Virus record (IMG/VR): IMGVR_UViG_3300006155_000004
Origin: a virus
Strand: one strand, 5' to 3'
DNA: 64,000 bases
Shown: one piece after another, positions 8,622 through 60,675 of the stretch
Position numbering within the stretch: position 1 is the stretch's first letter
Layout: every line of letters starts with the position of its first letter
Notes under the pieces: model-generated
What the model was told of the DNA's origin: nothing
The model's input: the letters and a program-made list of their open reading frames with translations, nothing else
Databases searched by the model: none
Translations under genes and position numbers: made by a program

Positions 8622-8632
8622 GAGGGGTTGAA

Positions 8633-8863
8633 TTGAAATTTGTGTTGAATGGTTGCGACATATCATTTGTTGCGGAAGCGCCAGAGGATATCACATTGAA
8701 ACAGCTTATCAAACAGTGTGACAAAATCAAGCCTGATTGGTGTGCTTGCGGCATATGTTCTTTGGGTTATGTCGGATATTCGGAAGATATAGAAGCGGAT
8801 ATTGCAATCGGATATGACACGATTGAAAAAGTTGGTGATGTTTCTTGCAGTATTGAGGATTGA
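8633..8863 (+). CDS. hypothetical protein
   Basis: ORF track; TTG start 5 nt after GGAGGGG. Confidence 0.55.
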   Translation: MKFVLNGCDISFVAEAPEDITLKQLIKQCDKIKPDWCACGICSLGYVGYSEDIEADIAIGYDTIEKVGDVSCSIED

Positions 8864-8874
8864 AAGGAGAACCT

Positions 8875-9300: not shown

Positions 9301-10159
9301 AAGATTGACGGATAAATCATATTGTATTTCTGATATTCGGGCAATACAGAAAGAAACATTTTATGAGGATATGGAATGCAGGCGTGGCTTTGACTTGTAT
9401 ACAGGAAAAGCCATTGACAAGCTGGCAGAATATGAGGATTTAGAGGAACAAGGGAAACTGCTGAAATTGCCAGTTGCAGTGGGAACCTGGGTATATGAAG
9501 TTTATCGGTTCATGGATGAGGGTGTTTGTGAGATTGATGTTCATAAAATCAAGCTAGAAGATTTAGAGAATATCGGAAAAACCGTTTTCCTCACCATAGA
9601 AGAAGCCGAGGATAAGCTGGCAGAAATGGAGGGGGAAGAAGCGAACGAGCGGAGAGTGATTATATACATAAGTGCTACCAAGCAAACCACAACCGCAAAA
9701 TGGCATTTAGAGGGAGTATATCCGTCTGATTTATGGGTTGCGATATTACATGATATTTCAGATTTAAAGCCATTTTTGGGAGAATCAAAAGTAATCATTA
9801 AGTTTAGCGATAGAACCAGGGAGGCCGTGTTTTATTTTAGCGGCGGAAAACTGATACAAGCAGGTCAAAACGAATTAGATTTTTGGGTTAAGAAATCAGA
9901 AAAGGAAAGCGAGGAAAAATCAATGTTACATAATGTGACCGTAAAACATGAGGAAGACAAGGTGCTTGAAGAATTTTGGGTAATGAGGGCGGTAAAAGAG
10001 GGGAAATTACCATTTGATTTCAAAAAGACAGTTATTGACGAAAGAAAATTAGACCATGAGCCGAGCAAAAGCGAAATCGCACAATTCCTAGCCGACAGCA
10101 AAGCGGATTTCGTGTCGGTGGTGCAGAATTACAGATTTGAAAATGAGTTGCCGTTTTAG
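9284..10159 (+). CDS. hypothetical protein (same paralog family, N-terminal half)
   Basis: ORF track; LKLPVAVGTWVY...IGKTVFLTIEEAEDKLAEM. Confidence 0.7.
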   Translation: MERLTERLTDKSYCISDIRAIQKETFYEDMECRRGFDLYTGKAIDKLAEYEDLEEQGKLLKLPVAVGTWVYEVYRFMDEGVCEIDVHKIKLEDLENIGKTVFLTIEEAEDKLAEMEGEEANERRVIIYISATKQTTTAKWHLEGVYPSDLWVAILHDISDLKPFLGESKVIIKFSDRTREAVFYFSGGKLIQAGQNELDFWVKKSEKESEEKSMLHNVTVKHEEDKVLEEFWVMRAVKEGKLPFDFKKTVIDERKLDHEPSKSEIAQFLADSKADFVSVVQNYRFENELPF

Positions 10160-10177
10160 GGAAAGGAGATTGAGGGA

Positions 10178-10504
10178 ATGAAACTTTATATTTTTAAAAC
10201 ATCGAATTGGAGTCATAAGCCAAAACTTACAATGGAAGAATTTGAGGTTGAGGAAAAACCGAAAACCTATGTATGCAAAGGAAGACGATTTAACAAAGAA
10301 GATATAGAAAAGGTAAGCGGATATGACTTTGATGAGTGTATGCTACTTGAAAACAATCCGTCTAAGGCTTGCGAAATTCTTTTGAAAAGAAAAGAGTTGG
10401 AATTGAAATGGGCGGAGGAAAAGGTTGCTGATAAGAAAGCAGAAATCGAGAATTTGAAAAGATATATCAGAAGAGAAAGTGAGAGGAAAGGCAATGATTG
10501 TTAA
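10178..10504 (+). CDS. hypothetical protein
   Basis: ORF track; AAAGGAG RBS. Confidence 0.65.
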   Translation: MKLYIFKTSNWSHKPKLTMEEFEVEEKPKTYVCKGRRFNKEDIEKVSGYDFDECMLLENNPSKACEILLKRKELELKWAEEKVADKKAEIENLKRYIRRESERKGNDC

Positions 10505-10748
10505 GAGAAGAATTTTTGACGAATTAAACAAGAGATTAAAAGAGGCGAGGGAAGAAAACGAAGAATTACGGAAGAAAAATAATGATTTGAACAGAAGAAT
10601 AAAAAGTGAGAGAGTAACGGGGTGTTGGTGCAGGACCTGTAAAAATTCCGTTGCAGAAACACATCAAACTGTATACGGAGATTACAAAACATATGATTGT
10701 TTGCTTGATGTGAAATGCAACGATTATGAGAGATTGGAGGATAAATAA
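10494..10748 (+). CDS. hypothetical coiled-coil/Cys protein
   Basis: In-frame ATG 10494 with GAGAGGAAAGG RBS inside ORF 10479..10748. Confidence 0.6.
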   Translation: MIVKRRIFDELNKRLKEAREENEELRKKNNDLNRRIKSERVTGCWCRTCKNSVAETHQTVYGDYKTYDCLLDVKCNDYERLEDK

Positions 10749-10749
10749 T

Positions 10750-11172
10750 ATGAATCGTGTAATTTTAATGGGACGCTTGACAAAAGACCCAGACGTAAGA
10801 TATTCACAAGGCAATAATCCAATGGCGATAGCAAGGTACACGCTAGCAGTTGAGCGAAAATTCAAGCGTGACGGCGAGGCGAACGCAGATTTTATTAACT
10901 GTATCGCATTTGGGAAGAATGGCGAGTTTGCGGAGAAGTATCTGCATAAGGGGATTAAGATAGCAGTTGTCGGTCGTATTCAGACGGGAAGTTATACAAA
11001 TAAAGACGGCGTAAAAGTATATACAACAGATGTGGTTGTGGAAGAACATGAGTTTGCAGAGAGCAAGAACACAAATCAACAGAATGAGCAAAGCAACAGA
11101 CCGCAACCAAGTAATTCTGATGATGACTTCATGCAAATTCCCGACAATATGGAGGACTTGCCATTCAACTGA
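10750..11172 (+). CDS. ssb: single-stranded DNA-binding protein
   Basis: MNRVILMGRLTKDPDVRY OB-fold start, Q/N-rich linker and acidic ...DLPF tail typical of bacterial/phage SSB. Confidence 0.9.
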   Translation: MNRVILMGRLTKDPDVRYSQGNNPMAIARYTLAVERKFKRDGEANADFINCIAFGKNGEFAEKYLHKGIKIAVVGRIQTGSYTNKDGVKVYTTDVVVEEHEFAESKNTNQQNEQSNRPQPSNSDDDFMQIPDNMEDLPFN

Positions 11173-11185
11173 TTGGAGATATGAA

Positions 11186-11599
11186 ATGATTTGGAATTTA
11201 GTAATAATAGGAATAATATTTCTCGTTGGATTTTTGATAGATCACATTATCAAATACAAGGAATTGAAATTTGACAATATGATTTTGAAAAAACAAGTTG
11301 ACGAAATCAGAAACAACTTCAAGATGTACAGAAGTATTTCTGATTGCGAAAATGCAGAGGTTGAAAAGTTAAAGAGCCAAAATGCAGAACTTCTTATGGA
11401 AAATATGCAACTCAAATCTCTTATTGGTGCATATCGGAATGTATATGGTTATCAGGACAAATATTCAACACCGCAAATTCCAAAAGATACGGTTGATGCT
11501 GTCCGATACGCCATGAAACACGCCCATCCAGACAACGGAGGAAATGCAGAAGATTTCATAAGGTTTCAAAAGTGCTATGAGGAATTGACGAGGAAGTGA
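11186..11599 (+). CDS. membrane-anchored coiled-coil protein with J-domain-like HPD motif
   Basis: In-frame ATG 11186; N-terminal TM helix; C-terminal YAMKHAHPDNGGNAEDFIRFQKCYEEL resembles the DnaJ J-domain helix II-III signature. Confidence 0.55.
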   Translation: MIWNLVIIGIIFLVGFLIDHIIKYKELKFDNMILKKQVDEIRNNFKMYRSISDCENAEVEKLKSQNAELLMENMQLKSLIGAYRNVYGYQDKYSTPQIPKDTVDAVRYAMKHAHPDNGGNAEDFIRFQKCYEELTRK

Positions 11600-19447: not shown

Positions 19448-20308
19448 GTGGATAAATTGAATGGAAATTTCATAAAGATTGACCGAAAAATGCTCGAATG
19501 GGAGTGGTACAAAAACGAGCATACCAAGAATGTGTTTTTACATTGCCTGCTAAAAGCACACTGGAAAGACACAAAGATTGAGGGGAAAACAATTCCGAGA
19601 GGTTCTTTTGTTTCTTCTATAGGAAATATAGCGGAAGAACTTTCGTTGACGCCTATGGAAGTGAGGACAGCATTGAAACATCTAAAATCAACAAACGAAT
19701 TAACAAGCAAAGGAACGAACAGAAATACAGTATTTACGGTAACAAACTATGATTTGTACCAATCAAAAGAACAAGCAGAGCAACAAACAGATAACAAACG
19801 AACAACAAACGAACAACAAACGGATAACGAGCAAATAACAAGCAAAGAACAAACCATTAACAAACCATTAACAACAAATGAAGAATATAAAGAAGATAAG
19901 AATATAAAGAACGAAGAAGAAAGAGAAGAATGTAAAGAATGCAAGAAAGAGATAGAGGACAAGCCGAAGAAAAAAGAGCCGACTGTTTATTATCCAAATG
20001 ACAAGCTACTAAACAGCGCCTTTAAAGAATTTTTGGTTATGAGGAACAAAATCAAGAAACCGATAGCCACCAAGCAGGCATTGACAAGAATGATGAACAA
20101 GATTGAGAAGTTGTCGGGCGGCGATAATGATTTGGCGATAAAGATACTCAACCAATCTACAGACCATTGCTGGCAGGATGTGTATGAGTTGAAAGAGGAT
20201 AAGAAGAATTATCGTTCTTCAAATACAAATTTTCAGAATCAGTCTAAGCAGGCGAAATTTGAGCGATTAATGAACCAAATAAAGGAGGATGAGGCGAGTG
20301 ACAGTTAA
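19448..20308 (+). CDS. phage replisome-organizer / DnaD-like replication initiation protein
   Basis: N-terminal F-x-K-I-D-R-x-M-L-E-W-E-W-Y winged-helix-type segment common in Firmicutes phage organizers; low-complexity T/N/Q linker encoded by DNA repeats. Confidence 0.65.
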   Translation: MDKLNGNFIKIDRKMLEWEWYKNEHTKNVFLHCLLKAHWKDTKIEGKTIPRGSFVSSIGNIAEELSLTPMEVRTALKHLKSTNELTSKGTNRNTVFTVTNYDLYQSKEQAEQQTDNKRTTNEQQTDNEQITSKEQTINKPLTTNEEYKEDKNIKNEEEREECKECKKEIEDKPKKKEPTVYYPNDKLLNSAFKEFLVMRNKIKKPIATKQALTRMMNKIEKLSGGDNDLAIKILNQSTDHCWQDVYELKEDKKNYRSSNTNFQNQSKQAKFERLMNQIKEDEASDS

Positions 20309-21938: not shown

Positions 21939-23906
21939 ATGGATTATCAGCAATTAGATATATTCGACATGACAAGACAGACATTTCAGATAGACAAGCC
22001 TATCCGATTGATTGAACTCTTTGCAGGTGTCGGCAGTCAGGCAATGGCATTGCGGGATTTGGGAGCGGATTTTGAGCATTACAGAGTGGTTGAGTTTGAT
22101 AAGTTTGCAGTCGCAAGCTACAATACCATTCACGGTACAAACTTTGAAACAACGGATATTCGGAATATAAGTGGTGTGGATTTAGGGATTTGCGACACAG
22201 GCAAATTCTGCTACATAACGACATATTCATTCCCTTGTTTCGTTGGAAACACGTTTGTTTTGACTAGAGATGGTTTAAAACAAATTGATGGTATAATTCC
22301 TGGCGATTATGTCCTTACTCATTCTAATGAGTATAAAAAGGTTTTGAAAAGCGGATATACTGGAACGAAAAACATATTTTCCGTGAAAGGTATGTGTATT
22401 GATGAAATAAAATGCACAAATAATCACAAATTTTATGCAAGGAAAATGATTGGACACTATCCGAGGAATAAAAACGGAAAAAGATTCAGAACAAGAGAAT
22501 TTTTAAGACCTGAATGGATTGAATGCGAAAGCCTAACAAAAGATTATTACTTAGGTGTTGCAACCAACCAAAATAGCGTAATTCCAACTTGGGATGGAAC
22601 TGATTTTAAATGGTCTGATGGAAGAAAATCAAGGCATAAGAATCAACTATCAAAACTCATGGGGAATCATAGTTTTTGGTGGATAATCGGCAGATATTTA
22701 GGAGATGGGTGGATTAGAACGCAAGGTGGAGTAATTATATGTTGCTCAAAAAACGAAACGCATGAAATTCTTCCGCATTTAAGAAATTGCGTTTTTTCCT
22801 ATTCCATATCAGCGGAAAGAACGGTAAATAAGATACACATAGCAATAAAGGAATTGCAATGTTTTTGTGAACGATTTGGAAGAGGAGCAAAAGGAAAACG
22901 CCTTCCGGGATTTGTTTTTGATATGCCTTGCGAGTTGTTGAAGAGTTTGATTGATGGCTATGTAAGTTCTGATGGATGTTACACACAAGGGCTGTATAAA
23001 ATTAGTAGTATTAGCAAGGAACTTGTCTACGGATTTGCTCAATTGGTTGCAAAAGCATATAAAGTACCATACAGAATATATAAGACAGAAAGACCTAAAA
23101 AGTGCAAGATAGAGGGAAGAACAGTAAATCAAAACGACACATATCAGTTGGTTTGGAAGTTGCAGAAGAAAAAACAAGACAAGGCTTTTTATGAAAAAGG
23201 TTATGTATGGTTTCCGATTAAGAGCGTGGAAAATACAAATTCAAAAGAGAAAGTATACGACATAACGGTTGAAGACTCTCATAGTTTTACTGCAAACGGA
23301 GCAATTGTTCACAACTGTCAGGATTTATCAGTCGCCGGAAAGCAAAAAGGCATGACCAAAGGAAGTGGTACAAGGTCGGGTTTGCTATGGGAAGTAGAAC
23401 GGTTGCTGAATGAATGCATCGAACTCCCACAAGTCCTGCTGATGGAGAATGTTCCTGCCGTACATTCACAAGCCAATATACCAGACTTCCAGAAGTGGAT
23501 TGATTTTCTTGAAAGCAAAGGGTATTCAAACTACTGGAAGGATCTGAACGCTAAAGATTATGGTGTGGCGCAAAATCGCGATAGATGCTTTATGGTGAGC
23601 TTTTTGGGCGAATGGAATTACAAATTTCCACAGCCGATACCGCTTGAAAGAAAGTTAAAGGACTATTTAGAAGATGAGGTTGACGAGAAGTATTACATCA
23701 ATAATGAAAAGTCGCAGAAATTGATACAGACACTTATTGAGAATGGAACATTGCAAGGCTGTATTGGGAATATAAATCCAAGCGGAAACGGAATGAACGG
23801 AAATGTATATGCGGGAGATTTAAGTCCAACAATTACCACGAATAAAGGCGATGGCGCAAAGATTTTTGTTGACCTATCCCTAAAAAATCCAAACAAAAAA
23901 CGATAA
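21939..23906 (+). CDS. DNA (cytosine-5) methyltransferase, N-terminal polypeptide (motifs I-VIII plus first TRD), interrupted by an intein
   Basis: Motif I ELFAGVGSQ; ...SFP | intein | CQDLSVAG (motif IV); LLMENVP (VI); QNRDRCFMV (VIII). Confidence 0.85.
   Translation: MDYQQLDIFDMTRQTFQIDKPIRLIELFAGVGSQAMALRDLGADFEHYRVVEFDKFAVASYNTIHGTNFETTDIRNISGVDLGICDTGKFCYITTYSFPCFVGNTFVLTRDGLKQIDGIIPGDYVLTHSNEYKKVLKSGYTGTKNIFSVKGMCIDEIKCTNNHKFYARKMIGHYPRNKNGKRFRTREFLRPEWIECESLTKDYYLGVATNQNSVIPTWDGTDFKWSDGRKSRHKNQLSKLMGNHSFWWIIGRYLGDGWIRTQGGVIICCSKNETHEILPHLRNCVFSYSISAERTVNKIHIAIKELQCFCERFGRGAKGKRLPGFVFDMPCELLKSLIDGYVSSDGCYTQGLYKISSISKELVYGFAQLVAKAYKVPYRIYKTERPKKCKIEGRTVNQNDTYQLVWKLQKKKQDKAFYEKGYVWFPIKSVENTNSKEKVYDITVEDSHSFTANGAIVHNCQDLSVAGKQKGMTKGSGTRSGLLWEVERLLNECIELPQVLLMENVPAVHSQANIPDFQKWIDFLESKGYSNYWKDLNAKDYGVAQNRDRCFMVSFLGEWNYKFPQPIPLERKLKDYLEDEVDEKYYINNEKSQKLIQTLIENGTLQGCIGNINPSGNGMNGNVYAGDLSPTITTNKGDGAKIFVDLSLKNPNKKR
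22236..23315 (+). mobile_element. intein with LAGLIDADG homing-endonuclease domain (360 aa) inside motif IV of the C5-MTase
   Basis: Starts CFVGNTFVLTRDG, TNNH block B, IIGRYLGDGW and LIDGYVSSDGC LAGLIDADG-like motifs, ends AIVHN followed by Cys(+1). Confidence 0.8.
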
Positions 23907-39615: not shown

Positions 39616-39759
39616 TTAATCTTTTTTATCTTTGAAGTGTGATGGCTTTCCGTAAATGTCTTTGCTGTCAACGGTACATTTTTTGCAGTATTTCTTTTTG
39701 CTTTTATCACGGTCTTTGTTTAGTTGTCCATATTCACAATTCTTGCAATCATATTTCAT
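39616..39759 (-). CDS. small zinc-ribbon protein (47 aa)
   Basis: Hand-translated MKYDCKNCEYG...KKYCKKCTV...; GGAGGG RBS 7 nt upstream; different frame from ORF-track 39489..39710. Confidence 0.5.
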   Translation of the reverse strand: MKYDCKNCEYGQLNKDRDKSKKKYCKKCTVDSKDIYGKPSHFKDKKD

Positions 39760-39812
39760 TCAAAATCCCTCCATTTCAAAAATTATAATTCCGTTGTGGG
39801 TGCGTGTCAAGG

Positions 39813-39835
39813 CGGAAAGGGCGGTTATACCGCCC
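39813..39835 (-). terminator. hairpin, possible terminator
   Basis: GGGCGGT / ACCGCCC stem then TTT on the minus strand, overlapping the stop of 39835..40095. Confidence 0.4.
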
Positions 39836-40095
39836 TATATCGTGTTGACATATTCCATAACGTGCTTTATGGTCTCATCATGCGATTTTCCTGCCATAAG
39901 CCGTTTCGATATCGTTGTAAGTTGTCGGCTGTTTGCGTCAATAATCTTTTTGAGTGCCTCTGTGGGTATCCTTCCAGTCGATACATACCAAGACAGTGGA
40001 TAGACGGCATTTTCTGCCTCGTTCGCGCTTAGGCCGCGTTTCCATAGTCTTGTTACAAGGGCAAACTCTATTTCGTTAAAATATTTTTGCGTCAT
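39835..40095 (-). CDS. hypothetical protein
   Basis: In-frame ATG at 40095 (MTQKYF...) inside ORF 39835..40146. Confidence 0.5.
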   Translation of the reverse strand: MTQKYFNEIEFALVTRLWKRGLSANEAENAVYPLSWYVSTGRIPTEALKKIIDANSRQLTTISKRLMAGKSHDETIKHVMEYVNTI

Positions 40096-40188
40096 ATCCT
40101 TTTCTTTCTCCCCTATATCCCTGGGGGCTGGGAATTTTATTGACAAATGGCAGTCGGGAGGCTTACGCTCCCTGCGCCGCTGGTCTTC

Positions 40189-40446
40189 CTATGATACAAG
40201 ATTTAAAATCTCGCTTCTTTTCGTCCGTACCATTATACGAGCTGTTTTTTCGTCAATTTGACCGTTTGTCATTTTTACAATCAGATTTGTAACCGCTGTA
40301 AATGCGTCAAATTCCGCCTTGTACGCCTCGTCAAAGGTCTTTTCTTTTTCTTCGTTGGTCGGATCGGCCATCATGGCATCGTCTGCCTTGTTTGCGATTT
40401 CCTCCAGTCTTGCAAGTTCTTCCAATCTCTTTTTTAATTCATTCAT
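40189..40446 (-). CDS. hypothetical coiled-coil protein
   Basis: ORF track; AAAGGTGG RBS. Confidence 0.6.
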   Translation of the reverse strand: MNELKKRLEELARLEEIANKADDAMMADPTNEEKEKTFDEAYKAEFDAFTAVTNLIVKMTNGQIDEKTARIMVRTKRSEILNLVS

Positions 40447-40516
40447 AATTTTTCCACCTTTTAACCTTTCTTTTTATTTTGTTCCAACCCCGGCATTTCT
40501 GCCGGACGCTTGCGGC

Positions 40517-40930
40517 CTATTTGCTGTATACTCCCAAAACCTCTGCTCCGCTGATTATCAACTCGCCCATATCGTTTCCACTCTCGGCATAATCTCCGCC
40601 CAAAACGTGGACATTGCCGCCAAAATAGATTTTAACCTGCTCTATGGATTTTGCGATTGATGCATCGTCTTCGGCATCAAATCCGATTACGCAAGTGCCG
40701 TCAAGCTCTCCAGCGTCATAAAATCCTGCGTAAATACCATCCTCAATATACGGATAAACCAACTCGCCGTCCTCGTCAAAATCCGGATCCTGGAAAAGCT
40801 GGTTGGAATTGCTGGCCGTATCGCCGATATTGTAGCATATTCCGTCGTCAACCCTCAATCCGTAAAACTCAAAATCTGTACCGCTGATTGCTTTCTTAAT
40901 GTCATCAATCGTTAATTTTGTCATATCCAT
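40517..40930 (-). CDS. strongly acidic protein (29 D/E vs 7 K/R in 137 aa)
   Basis: ORF track; AGGAGGGA RBS; first gene of the leftward operon, divergent from XRE 41092. Confidence 0.65.
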   Translation of the reverse strand: MDMTKLTIDDIKKAISGTDFEFYGLRVDDGICYNIGDTASNSNQLFQDPDFDEDGELVYPYIEDGIYAGFYDAGELDGTCVIGFDAEDDASIAKSIEQVKIYFGGNVHVLGGDYAESGNDMGELIISGAEVLGVYSK

Positions 40931-41091
40931 TCCCTCCTGTCTGGCTTGTTGTTTGCCTGTTTCTTTAACTGTCTTTATTATATCACTTTCAAAAGAAATG
41001 TCAAGCCTTTTTATAACTTTTCTAAGAAATATTTTTTGTTGACTTTTTCGTCGTTATAATATATATTAGGAAATAGAAAGGAGGCTTTAAA

Positions 41092-41328
41092 ATGCTGAAA
41101 TACAAATTTAATATGGAAGAAGCGCTGGAGCGTGCGAAATTTAACACGTACAAAGCAAAGACAACTGGACTTTTAAGCCAAGATACGCTAAAAAAAATAA
41201 AGGCAGAAAGTACAGATATTAGCCTTAAAGCATTAAATAATTTATGCTTAATTTTAGATATGCCGCCAGGGGCGATTCTGGATTTCGAAATCACAGACAA
41301 GGAAAAAGAAGATAGAAAAAAACTTTGA
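41092..41328 (+). CDS. XRE/Cro-type HTH regulator
   Basis: ORF track; AAAGGAGG RBS; ...TGLLSQDTLKKIKAESTDISLKALNNLCLIL HTH-like. Confidence 0.65.
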   Translation: MLKYKFNMEEALERAKFNTYKAKTTGLLSQDTLKKIKAESTDISLKALNNLCLILDMPPGAILDFEITDKEKEDRKKL

Positions 41329-41456
41329 TTATTTTAAAAATATCTCTTTACAAAGTGATAAGAATATGATATTATATAATTGTCAAGAGTGAAACCAAAT
41401 GACAATAACCGACAAGGCAGAGGGCAAGCGAAGCCTCAAGGGGAAAGGAGAAAAAC

Positions 41457-41609
41457 ATGAACGAAATGAAAGAATTTGTTGCATACAGCAAAAAGCTTTT
41501 AAGGGTACTTAAAAAGATAAAATCAGCATTGCAGAACAAAGATTATGCAGAGGTTGAAAAGCTGGTTGATGAACTGATTGATGACACCGAGGGCGATATC
41601 CAGGCATAA
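41457..41609 (+). CDS. hypothetical small helical protein (50 aa)
   Basis: Hand-translated; GGAAAGGAG RBS. Confidence 0.5.
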   Translation: MNEMKEFVAYSKKLLRVLKKIKSALQNKDYAEVEKLVDELIDDTEGDIQA

Positions 41610-41699
41610 CAGAATAAGGGTTCACAGAAAGGGCGGTCTTGTCACCGCCCCAACTGCTATTATAGGGTATCATATTTTTCTTGTTTCGGCAACTGTAAA

Positions 41700-41855
41700 T
41701 TATTGCATGGTGCATTAAAAATTCATTTCATAATGAATTAAAAATGAATTGCATAATGAATTTCATAATGCATTAATAATGCATTTAATAATTCATTTAT
41801 AACTGCATTACATAAATGCATTTTTAATGAAGTTAGTAAATGCATTATGAACTTT
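41700..41855. repeat. AT-rich array of about 13 ATGCAT/ATGAAT-core octamers
   Basis: Reiterated (A/T)AATGCATT, AATGAATT, ATTCATT units every 10-13 bp directly upstream of the RHH gene at 41875. Confidence 0.65.
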
Positions 41856-41874
41856 AAGAACGGAGGTTTTATAA

Positions 41875-42531
41875 ATGAGTGGAACGGAACAAAATAAACT
41901 TGATAAGTTGAACGCGCGTTATAAGCGTCAAAATGACAAGATACAAAAGAATTATGACAGAGTATCGGCAGTTCTTCCAAAGGGCAGTACAGATCGCATA
42001 AAAGCGTTAGGGATAAGCACAAATCAGTTTATAAACAGTGCGGTATCTTCCGAACTGGACAAGCTGGAAAGCGGTAAAAATCCAAAGAGAAAGCCAAAAG
42101 AGCCAACGCCTGACAAGGTAAACGGAAAGCCTGTTTACAGGTTCTGGAGAGAAGATGAATATATCAAGCGTGGCGGTCAGTGGTGGCATGAGGTTGTATT
42201 TTTCCATGATGACATGGAACTAAATGACTTGTTTATTAAATTTCTTGATATTTCGGCAAAGGAAAATGAAAACTATAAAGACGGATGCCGCCTGTGGTTT
42301 GATTTGATAAATCCGCAAAGGGAAGTAGGTAAAATAAGTGATTTGGAATTATTAAAAATGACAGATGAAGAAATAGGCAAAATCCCTGATGAACTGCTAG
42401 AGGAAACCATAGACCAGAACGAGGAATTAAAGGCGCTTTTGAAAGATTGTGTGTATAATGGCAATTATAAATCGTTGCTTGAATTTATTGGATTTTACGA
42501 ACTTGTGGAAACGACAAAAGACAATAAATAA
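41875..42531 (+). CDS. protein with N-terminal RHH domain and acidic C-terminal domain
   Basis: KNYDRVSAVLPKGSTDRIKALGISTNQFINSAV matches the RHH of 29546..29725; ACGGAGG RBS. Confidence 0.6.
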   Translation: MSGTEQNKLDKLNARYKRQNDKIQKNYDRVSAVLPKGSTDRIKALGISTNQFINSAVSSELDKLESGKNPKRKPKEPTPDKVNGKPVYRFWREDEYIKRGGQWWHEVVFFHDDMELNDLFIKFLDISAKENENYKDGCRLWFDLINPQREVGKISDLELLKMTDEEIGKIPDELLEETIDQNEELKALLKDCVYNGNYKSLLEFIGFYELVETTKDNK

Positions 42532-42686
42532 TTGCATTTACGAAATGCAGTTAATAAGTGATATTAATAATACAAGCCGTCTATATCGCAAGCATAGTCG
42601 GCTTAAATTGATATATGGCATATGTTCTTGAATGATTGTATTATATGCCATATATCCGCAATATGTCAAGTAGGAGTGCGGCAGAA

Positions 42687-43010
42687 ATGAAGCATGGAAA
42701 TAAATATTATTTGCAACTAAGCAGGAAGATTTTCACAGAGGAATACAGCAATTTGTCAAACAACGCAAAATGGCTTTTCGTGGTTTTGAATGAACTGGAA
42801 CAGGAATTTTGCGGAGATAAAGCAGAGGACTATTTTTATCGTTCCAATGAGGAATTGGCGAAAGACTGCAATTTCGGACTGTCAACGCTCAAGAAAGCCA
42901 AATCCGATCTATTAAAGACCGATTTAGTCCAGTCGCGGCAAGGGCATTTTGTAGACGATTTCGGAAAGAAAAGCGAAAAGCATTTTACATACTACCGAAT
43001 AAAGTCATAA
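42687..43010 (+). CDS. small winged-helix replication-initiator-like protein
   Basis: In-frame ATG 42687 with TAGGAG RBS; YYLQLSRKIF...LSNNAKWLFVVLNE...SNEELAKDCNFGLSTLKKAKSDLLKTDLV pattern; iterons start 5 bp after the stop. Confidence 0.45.
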   Translation: MKHGNKYYLQLSRKIFTEEYSNLSNNAKWLFVVLNELEQEFCGDKAEDYFYRSNEELAKDCNFGLSTLKKAKSDLLKTDLVQSRQGHFVDDFGKKSEKHFTYYRIKS

Positions 43011-43014
43011 TTAG

Positions 43015-43085
43015 CAAAGGCCAATATTTATACCATTGCCCAAAGGCCAAAATATAACCCACGGCAAAGGTCAGATTTTAACCCA
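43015..43085 (+). repeat. three 21-bp direct iterons (CAAAGGYCARNNTNTANNCCA), spacing 26 and 24 bp
   Basis: 43015-43035, 43041-43061, 43065-43085; about 15/21 positions invariant. Confidence 0.7.
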
Positions 43086-43454
43086 CGTATATAAGAACTG
43101 TATTTTATATTAAGAATTGGATTATAATTATCTAAGATTTAGTAAATAACATAGTATTGCTAAAGCAATACGTTGTATATTTATAATATATACAATAAAA
43201 CATAGCACAGTATATATTATTATCCACAGAGTATATTATACCAGTAGTCTATAGCGTACATATAGCCATAGTGTGCAGTGTTAGCCAATACAGTATATAT
43301 ATTCATATATCACAGAATATTAATCCAATACAGTAAATCTTTGGTCAATAAAGTATAACATACACACATTACCGGTATGTATTAAATTATTATAATACGC
43401 GCGCGGATATATATTATATACAGCTTGCAGAATATATGTTCTGTAAATCCACAG

Positions 43455-43483
43455 TTGACAGATAAATAAATCTATGATATGGT
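43455..43483 (+). promoter_or_regulatory. sigma-70-type promoter
   Basis: TTGACA, 17-nt spacer, TATGGT upstream of the TerS-like gene. Confidence 0.45.
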
Positions 43484-43613
43484 TTTAATAATTTAACAGA
43501 TTTACTTAACTTTTTTGGATGGAATTGTAGAGGGAAACTAAAACCCGGAGGTCATGACGCTATCATGGCTTTCTGGGTTATTTTTATTTTTAGGCAGAAT
43601 GGAGGTGTGGAAA

Positions 43614-44162
43614 GTGGCAGATAAAGAGTATAAGCGTAAAGGATATGCGCCGGATTTGTCAGAAACAGATAACATAATGGCGGTTACTGATATTCTTTTA
43701 ACGACTGTTAAATCTGGCAGACCTGCGGAATACCCAGAAGATGGGCATGGGCTTGAAAGATTCAAGAAAACGACGGTTGAATACTTGGAGCATGTGCAGG
43801 AAATAAACAGTGGTGACGATGTGTCAAAGAAAGTCATTCCGGATATTGAATCATGGGCTTGCTATTTAGGCATTACAAGGGCTACATTGGCCACATATGC
43901 AAGGACAAGGGGAGAGGATTGGAAGCAGTTTATAGCGGTTGTCAAGAATGGCATAGCGGCGGTTAAGAAAGACGCTGCATTCCATCAGCAGATAGCCCCG
44001 GTTATGGCCATGTTTGACTTTACAAACAATCACGACTACGTGAATACAAATGAGTTTAAGTTAAATGCAAGTGTTACAGAAGATGCAAAGAAAGTATTAA
44101 CCGCTAAAGAACTTCCTAAATTGGGAGATGTGGATAGTGCAGAAGTAAATGATAATATATAA
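43614..44162 (+). CDS. terminase small subunit-like protein
   Basis: GTG 43614, 8 nt after GGAGG; ...IESWACYLGITRATLATYARTRGEDWKQFIAVVKN...MAMFDFTNNHDY resembles the HTH plus oligomerisation core of TerS families. Confidence 0.55.
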   Translation: MADKEYKRKGYAPDLSETDNIMAVTDILLTTVKSGRPAEYPEDGHGLERFKKTTVEYLEHVQEINSGDDVSKKVIPDIESWACYLGITRATLATYARTRGEDWKQFIAVVKNGIAAVKKDAAFHQQIAPVMAMFDFTNNHDYVNTNEFKLNASVTEDAKKVLTAKELPKLGDVDSAEVNDNI

Positions 44163-44832
44163 ACATATATAATTATTATGTTCTGTGCAGTGATTATATA
44201 TATAAAAAATTGCTTATTGTGGTATGTATGTGTGATTATATGATAGTTAATCAATGGGGCTGCGGGTCATGAAAGGGCTAAGTTCCATGAGCATTTCTTT
44301 ACACGAAAAAAGCCACAAAGAGCGGGCGCCTCACCAATGGCAAAGCGTGTCCGACATCATGGCTGGAACATGCCAGGGGCAAGAGGGGGGGGGCGGACAA
44401 GAGGACGGTTCTGACGGCTATGGGACTGCCGAAACTGGGCGGCAGTGAGGTTAAAGGGATAGATGTTGTGGAGTATGGGGAGCGAGGTACAACATATTGA
44501 TTTTGCAGTGTAAAAAATAGCAAGGTAAATTTTACACAGTTATTTTCAAACATATGTTCATTGATTTTTGTGCATATTGACGATAAAAAAGAGCCTTGTT
44601 GGGTGTGGGAGTGGTTGGAAGTACCCACCCCCGGGGTTTGTAGGAGAGCCACCGAGCCGCTTATTAAGCTGGTTCTGCAAATTTTTTAGAAAAAAGGGGG
44701 TTGCAACAAGTCGATCTAAAAATTTCCCGAAAAATAAAAAGGCATCCAAACATAGGACACCTTAAAATTATTTTTCAAAAACAAAAAGGTAATATTTAAT
44801 TATATTATATATACCGCGCTGAACATTGATAA
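44163..44832. other. 670-nt ORF-free region with a GC-rich, hairpin-dense core (candidate structured RNA or packaging/recombination site)
   Basis: No protein-like ORF on either strand; G9 tract 44385-44393; perfect stems such as ACTGCCG/CGGCAGT, ATGTTGT/ACAACAT, GTGTAAAA/TTTTACAC. Confidence 0.3.
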
Positions 44833-45045
44833 TTACATACCCCTTTTAATCCACTGTATATCATAACCAACAATATCCAATATTTCCAAAATTTCATTGT
44901 ACTTAAATGTTTCTTTGGAAAGACGGTTACTAAAGTTTTGATAGCCAAGATTGGTATTGTGTCTTTTGTTTAGTTCGTCATTTATCTGTGCCATTGTGTA
45001 GCCGGATTTTATGATAAGTGCTTTCAAATCATTTTTGTAAGCCAT
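44833..45045 (-). CDS. XRE-like HTH regulator
   Basis: ATG at 45045 with GGAGG RBS; ...IIKSGYTMAQINDELN...; divergent from the recombinase. Confidence 0.55.
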   Translation of the reverse strand: MAYKNDLKALIIKSGYTMAQINDELNKRHNTNLGYQNFSNRLSKETFKYNEILEILDIVGYDIQWIKRGM

Positions 45046-45089
45046 AAGATACACCTCCTTGAATGGAATACATTATATCATAATAAATT

Positions 45090-45160
45090 TTCATTGTAAA
45101 GTTATAAAAAGACTTGCGTTTTATTATGAAAAGGTGTATAATTTCATTATAAAGTTATAA
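45090..45160 (+). promoter_or_regulatory. promoter plus two 18-bp direct repeats (operator or res-like subsites)
   Basis: TTCATTGTAAAGTTATAA (45090-45107) and TTCATTATAAAGTTATAA (45143-45160); TTGCGT, 17-nt spacer, TATAAT at 45114-45142. Confidence 0.6.
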
Positions 45161-45177
45161 TTAAGGAGGTAAATACA

Positions 45178-45750
45178 ATGAAGGTCGGATATGTCAGAGT
45201 TAGCACAGTAGAGCAGAACGAGGACAGGCAGCTAAAAGGACTTGAAAACTTCGGGATTGACAAATGGTACATTGAAAAGATTTCTGGTAAGAACACGAAC
45301 AGACCAGAGTTTCAGAAAATGATGTCAGAAGTCAAAGAGGGAGATATAATCTACGTTCACGCATTGTCAAGGCTTGCAAGGAATGCAAGGGATTTGCTGA
45401 ATATTCAGTATGAATTACAGGAAAAAGGCGTGAATTTAGTTAGCAACAAAGAAAGCATAGATACAACAACCCCTGTTGGCAGAGCGTTTTTTGGAATGTT
45501 GGCAGTGATGAACCAGTTTGAGCGTGAGGTCATGTTGGAAAGACAGGCAGAGGCTATCGCTGTTGCGAAAGAAAAAGGCACATACCGTCACAGGGGGGAT
45601 AAAAAAATTGACGTGGATTTGTTTGACGAGAATTATAGCCTTTACATTGACGGAAACTTGACTAAGGTTGAGTTTGCAAAGAATATAGGCGTTTCCAGAC
45701 CCACTCTTGATAAGATTTTGAAGAAAAGAGAGGGAGGAGAGGAAATATGA
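45178..45750 (+). CDS. small serine recombinase (resolvase/invertase family)
   Basis: MKVGYVRVSTVEQNEDRQ catalytic-serine motif; 190 aa with C-terminal HTH (NIGVSRPTLDKIL). Confidence 0.9.
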   Translation: MKVGYVRVSTVEQNEDRQLKGLENFGIDKWYIEKISGKNTNRPEFQKMMSEVKEGDIIYVHALSRLARNARDLLNIQYELQEKGVNLVSNKESIDTTTPVGRAFFGMLAVMNQFEREVMLERQAEAIAVAKEKGTYRHRGDKKIDVDLFDENYSLYIDGNLTKVEFAKNIGVSRPTLDKILKKREGGEEI

Positions 45751-46217
45751 AAATATTTGGTTATGTCAGGGATAAAGACGGAAATTTTGAAAATCGCAAA
45801 AATAAAGTCATTGAATTTTCAAAACAGATGGATTTTTCGATAGATAAATTTATCTGTGAAAAATCTTCTGAAAACTACGAAGATATGACAGAGATTAGAA
45901 AGCTACTGGAAGACGAAAAGGATTTTGTTCTTTTAGTTTCTGACGCATCGGATTTATTTGAAGATGACTATGCCTGTGTAAAACTCTTACCGATTTTAGA
46001 GAAAAATAATGTGTTTTTGGTAGACGCATATTATCCTAATTTGGACTATCGAATGATGATGGAGAAAAACTGTAAAGATTGTCCGTCAAACTTCTTGCAA
46101 AATCGCCTTATGGTAATATTGGAAATATATTTGAGGAAAAAGTATGATGGGAGCGATGACAATATGGTTTATGGTGATATGAGGACAAGGCTTTCTGAAT
46201 GGAAAAACAGCTTGTAA
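45747..46217 (+). CDS. resolvase N-terminal-domain-like protein lacking the catalytic serine
   Basis: MKIFGYVRDKDGN aligns with MKVGYVRVSTVEQ (Ser to Lys); no C-terminal HTH; ATGA overlap. Confidence 0.55.
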   Translation: MKIFGYVRDKDGNFENRKNKVIEFSKQMDFSIDKFICEKSSENYEDMTEIRKLLEDEKDFVLLVSDASDLFEDDYACVKLLPILEKNNVFLVDAYYPNLDYRMMMEKNCKDCPSNFLQNRLMVILEIYLRKKYDGSDDNMVYGDMRTRLSEWKNSL

Positions 46218-46328
46218 ACCAAACAACAAGTTCTAACCAACAAAAGATAAAATCTCAAACCACTCCCGATTAAATCAATCAAAACACCAAAGCTACCAAC
46301 AACAAAATCAAATATAAGGCGGTGCAAC

Positions 46329-46511
46329 ATGAACACAGTACAAGAAAACATAGAACTTTTCCGAAAACTGCAATCAGCACTTATCGAGGACAAAGTTTTG
46401 TATGACGCATTTGCCGCAAGTATAGAAAGTGCAATAAAAGAACTTCCACCACACATAGACAGAGAATGTGCGGCAAAGAGAATAGCGGATAGGATTATTG
46501 GGAGGGGATAA
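46329..46511 (+). CDS. hypothetical small protein
   Basis: ORF track; AAGGCGG RBS. Confidence 0.5.
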   Translation: MNTVQENIELFRKLQSALIEDKVLYDAFAASIESAIKELPPHIDRECAAKRIADRIIGRG

Positions 46512-46513
46512 GA

Positions 46514-46684
46514 ATGTGGGTAAAAGGAAAGCCAAACATAAGTGGAAATTACAAAGTTAGATACAAGGGAAAAGAGGGAAGAGACGACTATACAACTTCG
46601 GGCGGTGGTCATTGGTGGAATACAGGAACAATTCACGACCAAGAAGAGGTTGAATATGATCCAGCCAGTTTTAGGGAATTATAA
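46514..46684 (+). CDS. hypothetical small protein (56 aa)
   Basis: Hand-translated; GGGAGGGG RBS. Confidence 0.5.
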   Translation: MWVKGKPNISGNYKVRYKGKEGRDDYTTSGGGHWWNTGTIHDQEEVEYDPASFREL

Positions 46685-46688
46685 TTTT

Positions 46689-46760
46689 AGGGCTATCGCC
46701 AAACGGTAAGGCACAGCGCTTTGACTGCTGTATTTCCGGGTTCGAGTCCTGGTAGCCCTG
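46689..46760 (+). tRNA. tRNA-Gln (anticodon UUG)
   Basis: 7-bp acceptor AGGGCTA/TAGCCCT, anticodon loop CTTTGAC, T arm CCGGG-TTCGAGT-CCTGG. Confidence 0.8.
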
Positions 46761-47165
46761 TTGCCGCGACTTGCGCCGGAGTTGCGCGGGAATAAAGTTA
46801 ATGGGTCGCGGTATTAAATCTGAAAGCGAGGGAGTTTTGATGATTATTGCCATCTTTGGGATAATTGTTTTTCAACTCGTGGAACGGATTGCCATAGTCG
46901 AGAAATCCTCAACAGAGGTTTTGAGGAAATGCATCTGTATGTTAGGGTTTTCATACAATGCAATTCCGGCAAGGCATGAAGTCCCGTGAAAGCCATATCT
47001 GCAAGAAGATAATCCGCAAAATGCTGAAAAGCCAGTATTGATTATTAAAAATTATAATTGAGATAATGAACCAACAAAACTATCAAACATTGCGGATATG
47101 GCGGATTTAAGAAAATATATAAACTTATCGGCGGCGGCTTGTTGGTCTCGTTGCCGCCGGTTTAT

Positions 47166-47238
47166 GCGGGCATAGCTCAATCGGAAGAGCACTGGACTCC
47201 AAAACCAGAAGTCGTAGGTTCGACCCCCTCTGCCCGTG
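47166..47238 (+). tRNA. tRNA-Trp (anticodon CCA), non-canonical stems
   Basis: Acceptor GCGGGCA/TGCCCGT, D arm GCTC..GAGC, loop CTCCAAA; A-A at 31:39 and two mismatches in the T stem (GTAGG/CCCTC). Confidence 0.55.
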
Positions 47239-47390
47239 CTTAGTATCAAATATTTGTATTATTCGATATCTCCTTTTAACCCCGTAGTGGAATGCTGTTA
47301 AGAGCCATCGCACGGCTTGCGGGGATTCGGTGGAGCGACCACCATTATAAAAACAATCCGTGTAAAAATGTCACAAGTCTTGCAGGCAGG

Positions 47391-47648
47391 ATGTCTAATG
47401 CCGAGGGGAAACTTGGAAAGATAATTTTCGGTTCATTTGTTGGAGATCCAGGAGGGAAAAACTATATTGAACTGCCAATAAAGAGTGCGGACGTTTTTAG
47501 CAACAATATACTAGCGATCAATGGTGATTTTGTTGTGTATGGCGGCTTCGTTATTGGTTTCAACTTCTACAAAGAAAATGTCGTGTGTATATTATCTGCT
47601 GCGAGAAGCGGGGCCATAAGGATCAATTATATATATTTCCATGTTTAG
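47391..47648 (+). CDS. possible beta-rich small protein (85 aa)
   Basis: In-frame ATG 47391 inside ORF 47292..47648; weak RBS. Confidence 0.35.
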   Translation: MSNAEGKLGKIIFGSFVGDPGGKNYIELPIKSADVFSNNILAINGDFVVYGGFVIGFNFYKENVVCILSAARSGAIRINYIYFHV

Positions 47649-47719
47649 GCGCGTCAGTTGAAAGATAAGTGAAATGGTTTGTGTGGCGGGGAGGAACCCG
47701 CAAAAGGGAGGATATGGGA

Positions 47720-47902
47720 ATGGCGAGCACGACAAGAAAACCAATTCCAAGGAAGTATGAAGAGTGCCTAAATTGCCCGAACGATATTCCTGGTTATGGA
47801 AAGTGTAAGATAAAGTTTGACAATTTTTATTATCGGAGAGGGAAAAATAATCGTTGTTTCCATTGTCAAGAGGAAATCAGAAAATTGAAATTAGGATTCT
47901 AA
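47720..47902 (+). CDS. small zinc-ribbon protein
   Basis: ATG 47720, 8 nt after GGGAGG; CLNCP...CFHC. Confidence 0.5.
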   Translation: MASTTRKPIPRKYEECLNCPNDIPGYGKCKIKFDNFYYRRGKNNRCFHCQEEIRKLKLGF

Positions 47903-48010
47903 AATCCATTTTAAGCCATTTTAACCCCACGCCCTATAATTTCATCACCGAAACACAAAAGAGGGCGTTTTGGGGCAAATAGGAGCGTTAGAGAGGTATC
48001 AAAACAATAA

Positions 48011-48093
48011 GGGAAGTTATACAGTAGGGGCAGCGGGGCAGTCTGTAAAACTGTTATCTTTGGATTCGGGCGGTTCGACTCCGCCACTTCCCA
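48011..48093 (+). tRNA. tRNA-Tyr (anticodon GUA), long variable arm
   Basis: Perfect acceptor GGGAAGT/ACTTCCC, loop CTGTAAA, perfect T arm GGCGG-TTCGACT-CCGCC; D stem poorly defined. Confidence 0.75.
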
Positions 48094-48211
48094 TTTTGAT
48101 AATACTTGCCATTATCAAATCAAGCACAGCATGAGCCTTTAGGGTATAGTGCGGTAGTCTGATAAACTATGTGGGGAATGGGAGGCAAGTTTCCAAACCC
48201 CATGCTTGTAT

Positions 48212-48283
48212 GGTGTCATAGCCAAGTGGATAAGGCAACAGACTGCAACTCTGTTATCGAGGGTTCAAATCCCTCTGACATCT
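48212..48283 (+). tRNA. tRNA-Cys (anticodon GCA)
   Basis: Acceptor GGTGTCA/TGACATC, loop CTGCAAC, perfect T arm GAGGG-TTCAAAT-CCCTC. Confidence 0.8.
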
Positions 48284-48456
48284 CTTTTTATAAAAACCTG
48301 TCGGTCAAGCCTATATGGTGAGCAAAAATAGAGAATCAGTAAAGCCTTAAATGACCGTAAAACCCGTGATAGCCCCGGACACGCAAGGGATTAGTTTCCC
48401 GGATACGGAAATCGTCACGAATTGCCGCATAGTTGTGAAAGGTCTATGCGGAATAT

Positions 48457-48530: not shown

Positions 48531-48635
48531 CTTAACAGCGGAATAGCCCGACGGGGCAAAAAGTGGCAAACTCCACAAGCCGCCTGTCCGTTGTTTAACA
48601 AAATTGTGGAGAGAAAAGCATAGTGGAGGTGCGAT

Positions 48636-59818: not shown

Positions 59819-60235
59819 ATGGAAATAAAAGAAGTTTTCAACTCAAAAGAAGAATTAAATGCTTGCCTTAAATGGTGGCAGGAAAAGCTGTTTTTGACAG
59901 ACTGGATTATTAAAGCGAGAATTTCTGAACCATGCGACTTTATTACAGAAAACTCTTGTGGAGAAAACGAATTTGACATGGTAAACAAATGCTGCGTAAT
60001 CCGAATTTTGGACAAGAAGTATTACGGCGACCGCATTATGAAATATTGCGCTGAAAAAGTGCTAGTCCATGAATTGCTTCACTGTAAATACAACTGGATA
60101 GCAAACGAAAGTTCTTATGAGGGAAAGTATGTTGATGTCATGGAGCATGGATTGTTAGAACAAATGGCAAAGTCGCTGATTATGGCTAAGTACGATTTGA
60201 GTCTTGATTATTTCGGTGATATGGAGGTGGAGTAA
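59819..60235 (+). CDS. HExxH metallopeptidase-like protein
   Basis: KVLVHELLHC motif; paralog of 36706..37029. Confidence 0.55.
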   Translation: MEIKEVFNSKEELNACLKWWQEKLFLTDWIIKARISEPCDFITENSCGENEFDMVNKCCVIRILDKKYYGDRIMKYCAEKVLVHELLHCKYNWIANESSYEGKYVDVMEHGLLEQMAKSLIMAKYDLSLDYFGDMEVE

Positions 60236-60675
60236 TGACAACCAAGGAATACTTATCTCAAATCAGCAGACTTGACCGCATGATAAAAAACAAACTTACA
60301 GAACTTTCCCAATTAAAAGAAATGACGCACGGATTATCTGCCATTCCAAACGAGGAAAGAGTGCAGTCAACACCGAACGTTGACAAAATTGGAACTGCAT
60401 ACTGCAAAATAGAGTCTATGGAAGAAAACATAGACAGACTGATTGACGAATACGCAGACAAGAAAAACGAAATCATTTCACAGATTGACGGAATGGAAGA
60501 TGAAATACTGTATGATATTCTTTTTTCTAGGTACATAGCCAGGAAAACATTTGAGAAAATTGCAGACAACATGAACTATTCTTTCAGGCAGACAACAAGG
60601 ATTCACGGAAAAGCGTTGCAAGAATTTGAAAAGAAATATGGACATCTGTATATTGAAGATGAAAACGTGTCCTAG
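60235..60675 (+). CDS. sigma-like/DUF1492-type transcriptional regulator
   Basis: Coiled N-terminus then ...ILFSRYIARKTFEKIADNMNYSFRQTTRIHGKAL region-4-like HTH. Confidence 0.55.
   Translation: MTTKEYLSQISRLDRMIKNKLTELSQLKEMTHGLSAIPNEERVQSTPNVDKIGTAYCKIESMEENIDRLIDEYADKKNEIISQIDGMEDEILYDILFSRYIARKTFEKIADNMNYSFRQTTRIHGKALQEFEKKYGHLYIEDENVS

Follow-up and report, generated by a model that had tools for sequence, protein, structure and literature searches.

Whether positions 41,092 to 46,217 of the IMG/VR virus record IMGVR_UViG_3300006155_000004 hold a replicon of their own is the question raised by this locus, which lies in a 64,000-nt stretch of DNA that was analysed whole (hereafter the window). 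A preliminary description, made from the letters alone, had read there an XRE regulator, a small helical protein, a ribbon-helix-helix (RHH) protein preceded by an octamer array, a Rep-like winged-helix protein followed by iterons, a small terminase gene (terS), a structured island free of open reading frames (ORFs) and a resolvase with a dead paralog, and had taken the whole for a semi-autonomous, plasmid- or satellite-like element riding inside a temperate phage. Comparison with related genomes favors another answer, namely that 41.0-46.2 kb is probably the backbone of a ~110-kb temperate phage of Lachnospiraceae type, in which three cassettes recombine independently between conserved flanks and no inner element is present. 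One of these cassettes, the gene of the 107-aa winged-helix protein (wH107) together with a DNA site directly behind it, is a portable unit of ~25 phage and satellite lineages and is most often the last unit before terS-terL.

The window represents 64 kb of the ~110-kb phage genome and carries nearly all of its genes on the + strand. Exact-protein look-ups retrieved the same phage in a 111,064-bp version (contigs L002/L011 and L012), the two ends of which meet just left of the region. L002/L012 is 99.98% identical to the window from 41055 onward and has ~2.2 kb extra, inserted in the -10 region of the promoter of the 78-aa XRE gene (XRE78; features are listed in Table 1), and contig L005 is identical to the window over 39672-48372. 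Near-identical DNA was found neither among INPHARED phages (16 kb searched) nor among PLSDB plasmids (5.3 kb searched). Three further relatives were informative: the 89-kb L070-72, whose TerS is 75% identical to that of the window; L054, from a mouse-gut Lachnospiraceae metagenome-assembled genome, where its contig of 280 kb fits an integrated prophage; and the 95-kb L001, which elsewhere is 77-94% identical to the window, in patches.

In L070, L054, L001 and L002/L012 the segment is conserved backbone synteny, and this largely refutes the semi-autonomous nested element that had been proposed: four related phage lineages (~89-111 kb) share the backbone and only sub-cassettes are swapped. Their common order is a (-)-strand cluster, an XRE gene, a small ORF, the terS slot, a (-)-strand helix-turn-helix (HTH) gene, a recombinase and tRNAs/initiator. 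L070-72 has the (-)-strand cluster, XRE, small ORF, wH107, iterons, promoter/leader, gp3-type terS, (-)-strand HTH gene, resolvase, resolvase-like gene, HNH and initiator, and is without the RHH gene. L054 keeps XRE78 (94%), a short RHH gene, wH107 (95%) and the whole stretch 42561-43610 (89%), together with another terS allele and a different recombinase. L001 matches the window to 41421 (flank 41375-41421) and resumes at 43428 (flank 43428-43607); between the two, 48-aa and 89-aa ORFs replace the 50-aa gene, the RHH gene, wH107 and the iterons, and its own terS allele is followed by the equivalent of 44356-45771 at 97% identity. The RHH gene with wH107 and iterons, the terS allele and the recombinase are thus exchanged singly, and a fixed framework in which three or four sub-cassettes change independently amounts to ordinary phage mosaicism.

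A satellite- or plasmid-like replicon integrated at 41.1-46.2 kb would nonetheless explain several things: the gene order of regulators, rep, iterons and terS, then resolvase, is real, the window has other initiator-like genes, homologues of wH107 with the same cis-element occur on an integrase-bearing, capsid-encoding 8.5-kb chromosomal island, and a close TerS homologue is carried by a plasmid-like circle of 12.8 kb that also has Rep, ParA and resolvase. We regard this explanation as improbable, because the backbone is kept in the four lineages, each varying sub-cassette lies between conserved flanks, the Rep-like protein is an N-terminal domain only, and terS sits in the standard slot of the lineage. 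No integrase gene was found between 39 and 47 kb, that of the phage being at 26909, no att-type direct repeats were found in the region or flanking it, only a 50-nt inverted repeat, and none of the ORFs of 40.5-46.5 kb matched a partition NTPase (ParA/ParM). Among the collinear relatives (L001, L054, L070, L002), presence or absence as a single unit was not observed, the sub-cassettes varying independently. Of the supposed plasmid maintenance set, the resolvase is intact and has repeats upstream that might be a res site, although their motif also sits at other promoters; there is no partition NTPase, and the RHH fold lacks a Pfam or PDB match. The order also recalls that of SaPI/PICI satellites (int-stl-str-rep-ori-packaging operon-terS) in that regulators, a rep-like gene, iterons with AT-rich DNA directly 3' of it, and terS follow one another; unlike those satellites, the window unit has neither an integrase nor att sites of its own, is not gained or lost as a unit and lies within a conserved backbone. 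The likeness to satellites and plasmids is therefore genuine in the order rep-iterons-terS but belongs to other elements, such as the circle L022, and not to the window segment.

That circle (L022, 1-12845; also L023-L026) measures 12,815 bp with a 30-nt end overlap. Its genes are those of a RepA_N/DUF6017 Rep of full length, which has iterons upstream, of ParA, an HNH and a PC4-like protein, of a gp3 TerS 65% identical to that of the window, and of a resolvase and a sigma-70 factor. Many of the closest TerS relatives are on short contigs, and in L027 and L050 terS is likewise linked to a small serine recombinase. Gene sets of the L022 type indicate that elements with Rep, par, res and terS exist as separate small replicons beside the phage group, and the scars in the window indicate exchange with such plasmid-like elements; L022 is a candidate plasmid-type satellite of this group.

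Four points weigh against the backbone reading. Only 64 kb of ~110 kb was seen, and a second terS is possible in the remaining ~45 kb. The gp3-type terS is 65% identical to the copy of the plasmid-like element and the scars show that it was acquired by replacement, so that it may plausibly have come from such an element by horizontal transfer. L001 is without the wH107 block, which is therefore accessory, not core. Lastly, a 50-nt, 76% inverted repeat (40987-41036 / 45082-45131) brackets 4 kb beside a serine recombinase.

The TerS of the window itself scores just under the curated cut-off of GP3_package (PF16677; 28.7 against 29.4 bits) and matches phrog_606, 'terminase small subunit', at 1.2e-4, while 27 of its 29 aligned relatives match GP3_package at E <= 1e-3 (best 1e-10), which supports the TerS-like call. 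The TerS profile found no match among PDB sequences. All relatives keep the slot, and the window, the small ORFs around TerL included, yielded no second TerS candidate, so that this terS is probably the phage's own and not that of a guest. Whereas its relatives match the P22 gp3 family in sequence, its gene is not next to TerL but 14 kb upstream, has a terminator in its leader and undergoes allele replacement with a terS-like allele that has no Pfam match. The leader begins at a sigma-A-like promoter and ends in an intrinsic terminator, the T-run of which stops 9 nt before the terS ribosome-binding site (RBS). Its stem is maintained by compensatory changes (CCCGGAGGTCATGA...TCATGGCTTTCTGGG in the window, CCCGGAGGCCTAGA...CTAGGCTTTCCGGG in L001 and CCCGTGAGCCTAG...CTAGGTTTACGGG in L070). 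With a terminator between promoter and RBS, expression of terS would probably need read-through, which suggests control by attenuation or antitermination.

Downstream of terS, the 670-nt island proved to be ORF-poor, as described, but not structured. Structured RNA was considered there and rejected, as its fold was no better than those of shuffled sequences (z-scores of +0.5 and -1.6 for the + and - strands), and an Rfam scan of 41.3-45.2 kb gave no significant match, only a sub-threshold Phe_leader (E 0.19) that coincides with the (-)-strand terminator. The island is instead partly recombination debris. It holds a patch resembling DNA that lies just upstream of terS on L022, and tblastn with the terS-like protein of L001 aligned 44352-44375 in one frame and 44378-44482 in another; L054 carries this allele intact. 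The frameshifted remnant indicates that an older allele in the slot lost its 5' two-thirds to the gp3-type terS and survives as a scar.

At the right end of the region, the resolvase was confirmed as intact: the 190-aa protein matches PF00239 at 6.2e-41 with its YVRVSTVEQ motif, which holds the Ser nucleophile, preserved, matches phrog_125 at 4e-62 and has weak HTH matches at residues 155-189. It is predicted from these features to be an active small serine recombinase. The 156-aa protein encoded behind it had been called a catalytically dead resolvase paralog. It does belong to a small family without the nucleophile Ser and aligns collinearly with resolvase residues 3-88 (hhalign E = 1.4e-3, 17% probability), but the relation is weak (BLASTP E = 0.008). 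In its place L001 has an intact 259-aa recombinase and L070 a 143-aa PF00239 protein. Of the divergent 'XRE' gene, a small HTH-like gene on the - strand stands, with sub-threshold matches only; its positional equivalent in L070 has weak Phage_CI_repr/HTH_26 matches. With known small serine recombinases (Tn3/gamma-delta/Sin/beta; Hin/Gin/Cin) the window enzyme shares the Ser-nucleophile catalytic domain, the C-terminal HTH and repeats directly upstream, and it differs from them in that its gene is followed by a non-catalytic paralog and that a link to terS recurs in small elements (L022, L027, L050). This cassette of HTH gene, repeats, serine recombinase and degenerate paralog may serve multimer resolution or local regulation. 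The 7.9-kb contig L006 is identical to the window over 44536-47723 and then continues into DUF5131, phage scaffold and capsid-like genes (L006 3189-7870), so that in another phage the recombinase/tRNA block is joined to a different structural module.

The inverted repeat beside this enzyme could mean that the 4 kb at 41.04-45.08 kb are an invertible or excisable cassette on which the recombinase acts. It is the longest inverted repeat of the region, a 13-nt core (TTTTTATAACTTT) is identical in both arms, the invertase-like gene adjoins the right arm, and the best PHROG family of the enzyme is 'DNA invertase' (phrog_125). The two arms, however, are created by copies of an 18-nt motif, TAT[AC]ACTTT..A..G[AT][AG]A, which occurs exactly five times in the 64 kb, each time at a promoter of this region, as fits an operator. 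Moreover, the left copies travel with XRE78 (in L054, which is without this recombinase) and the right copies with the recombinase block (in L001, which is without the left ones), and the contigs of all lineages are collinear, with no inverted isoform seen. Separate travel of the two sides and the absence of an inverted isoform argue that the copies are operators and not crossover sites, and inversion or excision is very improbable. The divergent promoter region at the right arm is a candidate operator or res-type site.

We turn to the portable cassette. Structure prediction and profile searches bore out the earlier view of wH107 as a winged-helix, Rep-like protein and place it with the N-terminal domain of RepA_N initiators. 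A family profile built from 34 members matched the N-terminal domains of staphylococcal RepA in the PDB (4PTA at 4.4e-6; 4PQL, 5KBJ and 4PT7 at ~2e-4), and the AlphaFold2 (AF2) model of wH107 (pLDDT 83) had the same RepA structures as its top Foldseek matches (TM ~0.6). PHROG matches were to the N-termini of DnaD-like and initiator families, and some homologues carry a precomputed PF06970 match. With the initiators of pSK41 and pTZ2162 (4PQL, 4PT7, 4PTA, 5KBJ) wH107 shares the winged-helix domain and an F/YYxQL...LSNxAK motif. In contrast to them, it consists of this domain alone: it ends after the wing, so that the host-specific C-terminal domain of RepA_N needed for initiation is missing, and its iterons are just downstream of the gene rather than inside it. 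The short form is a property of the family, as nearly all complete proteins among 112 homologues have 104-123 aa and a few up to 143, shorter ones being fragments. A tblastn search with wH107 found no member of the family among INPHARED phages or PLSDB plasmids.

Three iterons and AT-rich DNA directly behind the rep-like gene, as first described, were recovered, the iterons beginning 5 nt past the stop codon with a period of 24-26 bp. RepA_N iterons have been described as semi-palindromic direct repeats (PMC7145576), and the candidate cognate iterons of wH107 are alike. We examined ~25 lineages from IMG/VR contigs (L028-L053), GTDB genomes (L054-L069) and metagenome contigs (L015-L021, L070-L076). 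In the large majority of these, the wH107 gene is followed by two to four (mostly three) direct repeats of ~21-26 bp, the sequence of which is specific to the lineage and internally semi-palindromic (e.g. GTATCTCACAGATAC, GGGTCTGTGAGACCC, GTTGTATATCAAC). After the repeats come one or two TAAGAATTGGACT-like boxes, the near-invariant 22-mer TAAGATTTAGTAAATAACATAG and, at once, a palindrome of variable sequence. The palindrome was found in ~16 of 21 lineages (mean z-score -2.8) and showed no strand bias that would separate RNA from DNA (-10.3 versus -10.2 kcal/mol). As the 22-mer is single-copy in the window, its candidacy as a repeated promoter motif was rejected. Between this element and the terS promoter, ~10 CAGTAT/ACAGTAT-like repeats occupy 43190-43450; similar motifs are present at 8230-8520 of L001, in DNA that cannot be aligned.

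The unit recurs in unrelated company. Of ~24 lineages, at least 12 have the element 20-700 nt before terS (of at least four TerS families) or HNH, followed on the same strand by TerL and portal. In a prophage type represented by L073-L076, the complete cassette stands directly after the gene of a LexA-like cI repressor (HTH_3 + Peptidase_S24) and before a Uma2-integrase, in the lysogeny module and not by terS. A capsid-encoding island of ~8.5 kb between host genes (L015/L016, ~3050-11570; also L058) carries a homologue, wH106, with the same cis-element, in the order integrase, CI-like repressor, Cro-like gene, wH106 and cis-element, DUF4355 scaffold and major head protein (phrog_422, 2e-64). 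The island, in which neither terS nor terL was detected, looks like a capsid-encoding satellite.

For the output of the cassette we narrowly favor, as a tentative choice, a helper-dependent accessory origin. Dimers of wH107 would bind the three semi-palindromic iterons as putative sites, and the bound protein would seed the assembly of a complex on the AT-rich TAAGAAT boxes, the invariant 22-mer and the palindrome next to them. Firing would take place only with phage replication proteins, after the model of RepA of the Vibrio satellite PLE, a protein that is without helicase or primase activity and depends on the helper phage (PMC7145576). Homology to replication-specific winged helices, iterons that match the published RepA_N description, self-containment in unrelated gene contexts and the position of wH106 as the sole Rep-like gene of the 8.5-kb island are consistent with such an origin. 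Three observations count against it. First, wH107 has no effector or replisome-recruiting domain. Second, the element shows no enrichment of DnaA boxes nearby in 24 lineages; the single perfect box of the window is not conserved in relatives, even in L054, and DnaA boxes were rejected as support for an origin. Third, a position directly upstream of terS fits the geometry of late activators, the Ltr regulators (PMC3753634).

The last observation leads to a transcriptional switch for the downstream operon, which we hold to be nearly as likely as the origin. In that case wH107 would be a fifth, non-homologous kind of late regulator that turns on or insulates the operon, the 22-mer would act as core promoter and the palindrome as an operator or a 5' hairpin. 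The location before terS or HNH, with TerL and portal next, in at least 12 of ~24 lineages argues for this, as do RBS-linked ORFs that often begin 20-80 nt past the palindrome, the different small-ORF cassette that L001 has in the same slot, and the full replication modules that the phage has elsewhere. Yet the homology of wH107 is to replication-initiator winged helices: it has no Pfam or PHROG match to RinA, LtrA (sigma70_r4), LtrB (DUF1492) or LtrC, and no sequence relationship to these regulators or to Alt of TP901-1. The 22-mer is without good sigma-A -35/-10 elements, and its sole TAnnnT hexamer, TAACAT, is TAACAA in several lineages. Unlike an Ltr gene, the cassette is not always by late genes, the L073-type prophages having it between cI and Uma2-int; terS of the window is served by a conserved promoter and terminator of its own, 300 nt farther downstream; and a DUF1492 (LtrB-family) gene is already present in the window.

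A packaging signal (pac or cos), with wH107 as a DNA-recognition accessory of terminase, would fit an element that occurs once in the window, immediately precedes terS in many lineages and is also present on a satellite-like island without terS/terL. We consider it very unlikely, given that the same invariant box precedes four unrelated TerS families and TerLs only ~25% mutually identical, that no copy of the element exists within the 20 kb surrounding the terS slot of the close relative L001, and that L073-type prophages place it beside int. Other cis functions, taken together, have a lesser chance than either origin or switch.

Upstream of wH107, in the three genes and the array that with wH107 and its site make up the regulatory cassette, most of what had been described holds. 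XRE78 is a borderline XRE-like regulator whose homologues in relatives carry HTH_26; L070 and L001 have equivalent 76-78-aa HTH_26 genes at the same position. The small helical protein corresponds to a 50-aa ORF, which is also linked to wH107 in the phages L017-L021 (52% identity). The octamer array is strongly non-random: nine of the 12 window copies of AAT[GT][CA]ATT cluster in it, seven spaced 11-12 bp and then 24-25 bp, while no other 160-nt stretch of the window has more than two copies of the core, and it is probably an operator array. The RHH assignment of the 218-aa protein behind it survives in part. A strand-helix-helix pattern is present in the N-terminal segment, and the AF2 model has an extended segment and then two helices at residues 27-66, but its pLDDT is only 67 and no Pfam match and, by sequence search, no PDB match was obtained. 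The family is narrow (12 homologues), and the PHROG families matched are of unknown function only (2e-9, 4e-6).

Table 1. Features of the region and its surroundings. Positions are those of the window.
Feature	Position	Strand	Details
RecT, methyltransferases, helicase, DnaD/O-like initiator, tyrosine integrase	helicase 13882; initiator 19448; integrase 26909		Left-half genes
Two 18-nt motif copies	40981-41029	+	Copies at 40981 and 41012; divergent promoter region left of the XRE gene
Insertion point of the 2.2 kb of L002/L012	41055-41065		Insert encodes a Peptidase_C39_2 protein and 191-aa and 78-aa ORFs; 11-bp overlap TATAATATATA
XRE78	41092-41328	+	78-aa XRE/HTH_26-like regulator; HTH_26 21.2 bits (cut-off 22)
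Third 18-nt motif copy	41343-41360	-	At the promoter of the 50-aa gene
50-aa helical protein	41457-41609	+	
Octamer array	41720-41846		9 x AATGCATT/AATGAATT/AATTCATT; directly upstream of the 218-aa gene
218-aa protein	41875-42531	+	N-terminal strand-helix-helix (RHH-like) pattern
Perfect 14-nt inverted repeat	42610-42656		GATATATGGCATAT / ATATGCCATATATC, over promoter-like hexamers; upstream of wH107
wH107	42687-43010	+	107 aa; RepA_N-N-terminal-domain-like winged helix alone
Three direct iterons	43015-43087	+	CAAAGGyCAnAtnTAnCCCA, semi-palindromic around an A/T centre
Boxes, 22-mer and palindrome	43088-43171	+	Two TAAGAAy boxes; near-invariant 22-mer TAAGATTTAGTAAATAACATAG (43133-43154); palindrome GTATTGCTAAAGCAATAC (43154-43171)
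AT-rich spacer	43172-43454		~10 CAGTAT-like repeats; one perfect DnaA box (43220-43228)
terS promoter, leader and terminator	43455-43592	+	Sigma-A-like TTGACA-17-TATGGT (43455-43483); intrinsic terminator hairpin (43547-43573)
gp3-type terS	43614-44162	+	182 aa; GTG start after GGAGG
L022-like patch	44254-44312	+	23-nt exact core
Frameshifted terS remnant	44352-44482	+	3' remnant, codons 156-198, of an L001/L054-type allele
Terminator hairpin	44739-44763	-	Of the 70-aa gene
Small HTH-like protein	44833-45045 (to 45054 with GTG start)	-	70 aa (73 aa from the GTG start)
Divergent promoter region	45068-45160		Two 22-nt direct repeats (the two - strand motif copies, 45089 and 45142) and a 20-nt inverted repeat
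Small serine recombinase (resolvase/invertase)	45178-45750	+	190 aa; C-terminal HTH
156-aa protein	45747-46217	+	Small family that keeps Y6/R8 (GYxR start), without the nucleophile Ser
tRNA cluster	46.7-48.5 kb		Five tRNAs
TerL, DUF1492 protein, portal, head-morphogenesis gene	TerL 57989; portal 61503		Right-end genes

Elsewhere in the window, the context genes read by the preliminary description (initiator-like genes at 19448 and 49364, integrase and TerL) were all confirmed. The DnaD/O-like initiator gene (19448-20308) contains tandem 11/22/33-bp repeats at 19766-19978 (AACAAACAAAT and related), which may be an in-gene origin as in lambda O or a low-complexity linker. A 493-aa ORF on the minority strand (1071-2552, -), in a GC-richer stretch (~0.50 versus ~0.38) and with no PHROG match at 1e-5, looks like an insertion sequence (IS) transposase inserted into the phage. 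The 655-aa DNA methyltransferase at 21939-23906 has its PHROG matches split by a ~400-aa insert that matches families with intein-like segments and is probably an intein. An Rfam match to int-alpA RNA (48536-48609; 38.2 bits, gathering score 35.8) adjoins the tRNA-Ile that ends the five-tRNA cluster. The DUF1492 protein (60235-60675; 25 bits, cut-off 21.5), a member of the LtrB late-activator family, has its gene between TerL and portal and not upstream of terS.

For the phage, these results remove a tempting call of an element within a phage and show how look-alikes arise, as swaps of regulatory, terS and recombinase cassettes in the backbone leave pseudogene scars. A close TerS homologue on a 12.8-kb circle with Rep, ParA and resolvase points to plasmid-type satellites of these gut phages. 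The comparison also yields a well-delimited family of ~107-aa proteins limited to the RepA_N N-terminal domain, with a stereotyped DNA element, in ~25 lineages and absent from the reference collections searched. It is possible, though we put it forward with low confidence, that this is an undescribed portable cis/trans module of Clostridia phages, capsid-encoding islands and prophage immunity regions, in which an effector-less RepA_N domain serves as a helper-dependent origin tag or a new packaging-operon switch, exploited by satellites and by terS-carrying plasmid-like elements (L022) to ride the phage group. Were the element an origin, it would illustrate how an initiator without effector domain can rely on a helper, as PLE RepA does; were it a promoter switch, the late-activator (Ltr) set would gain a fifth family, unrelated in structure to the others.

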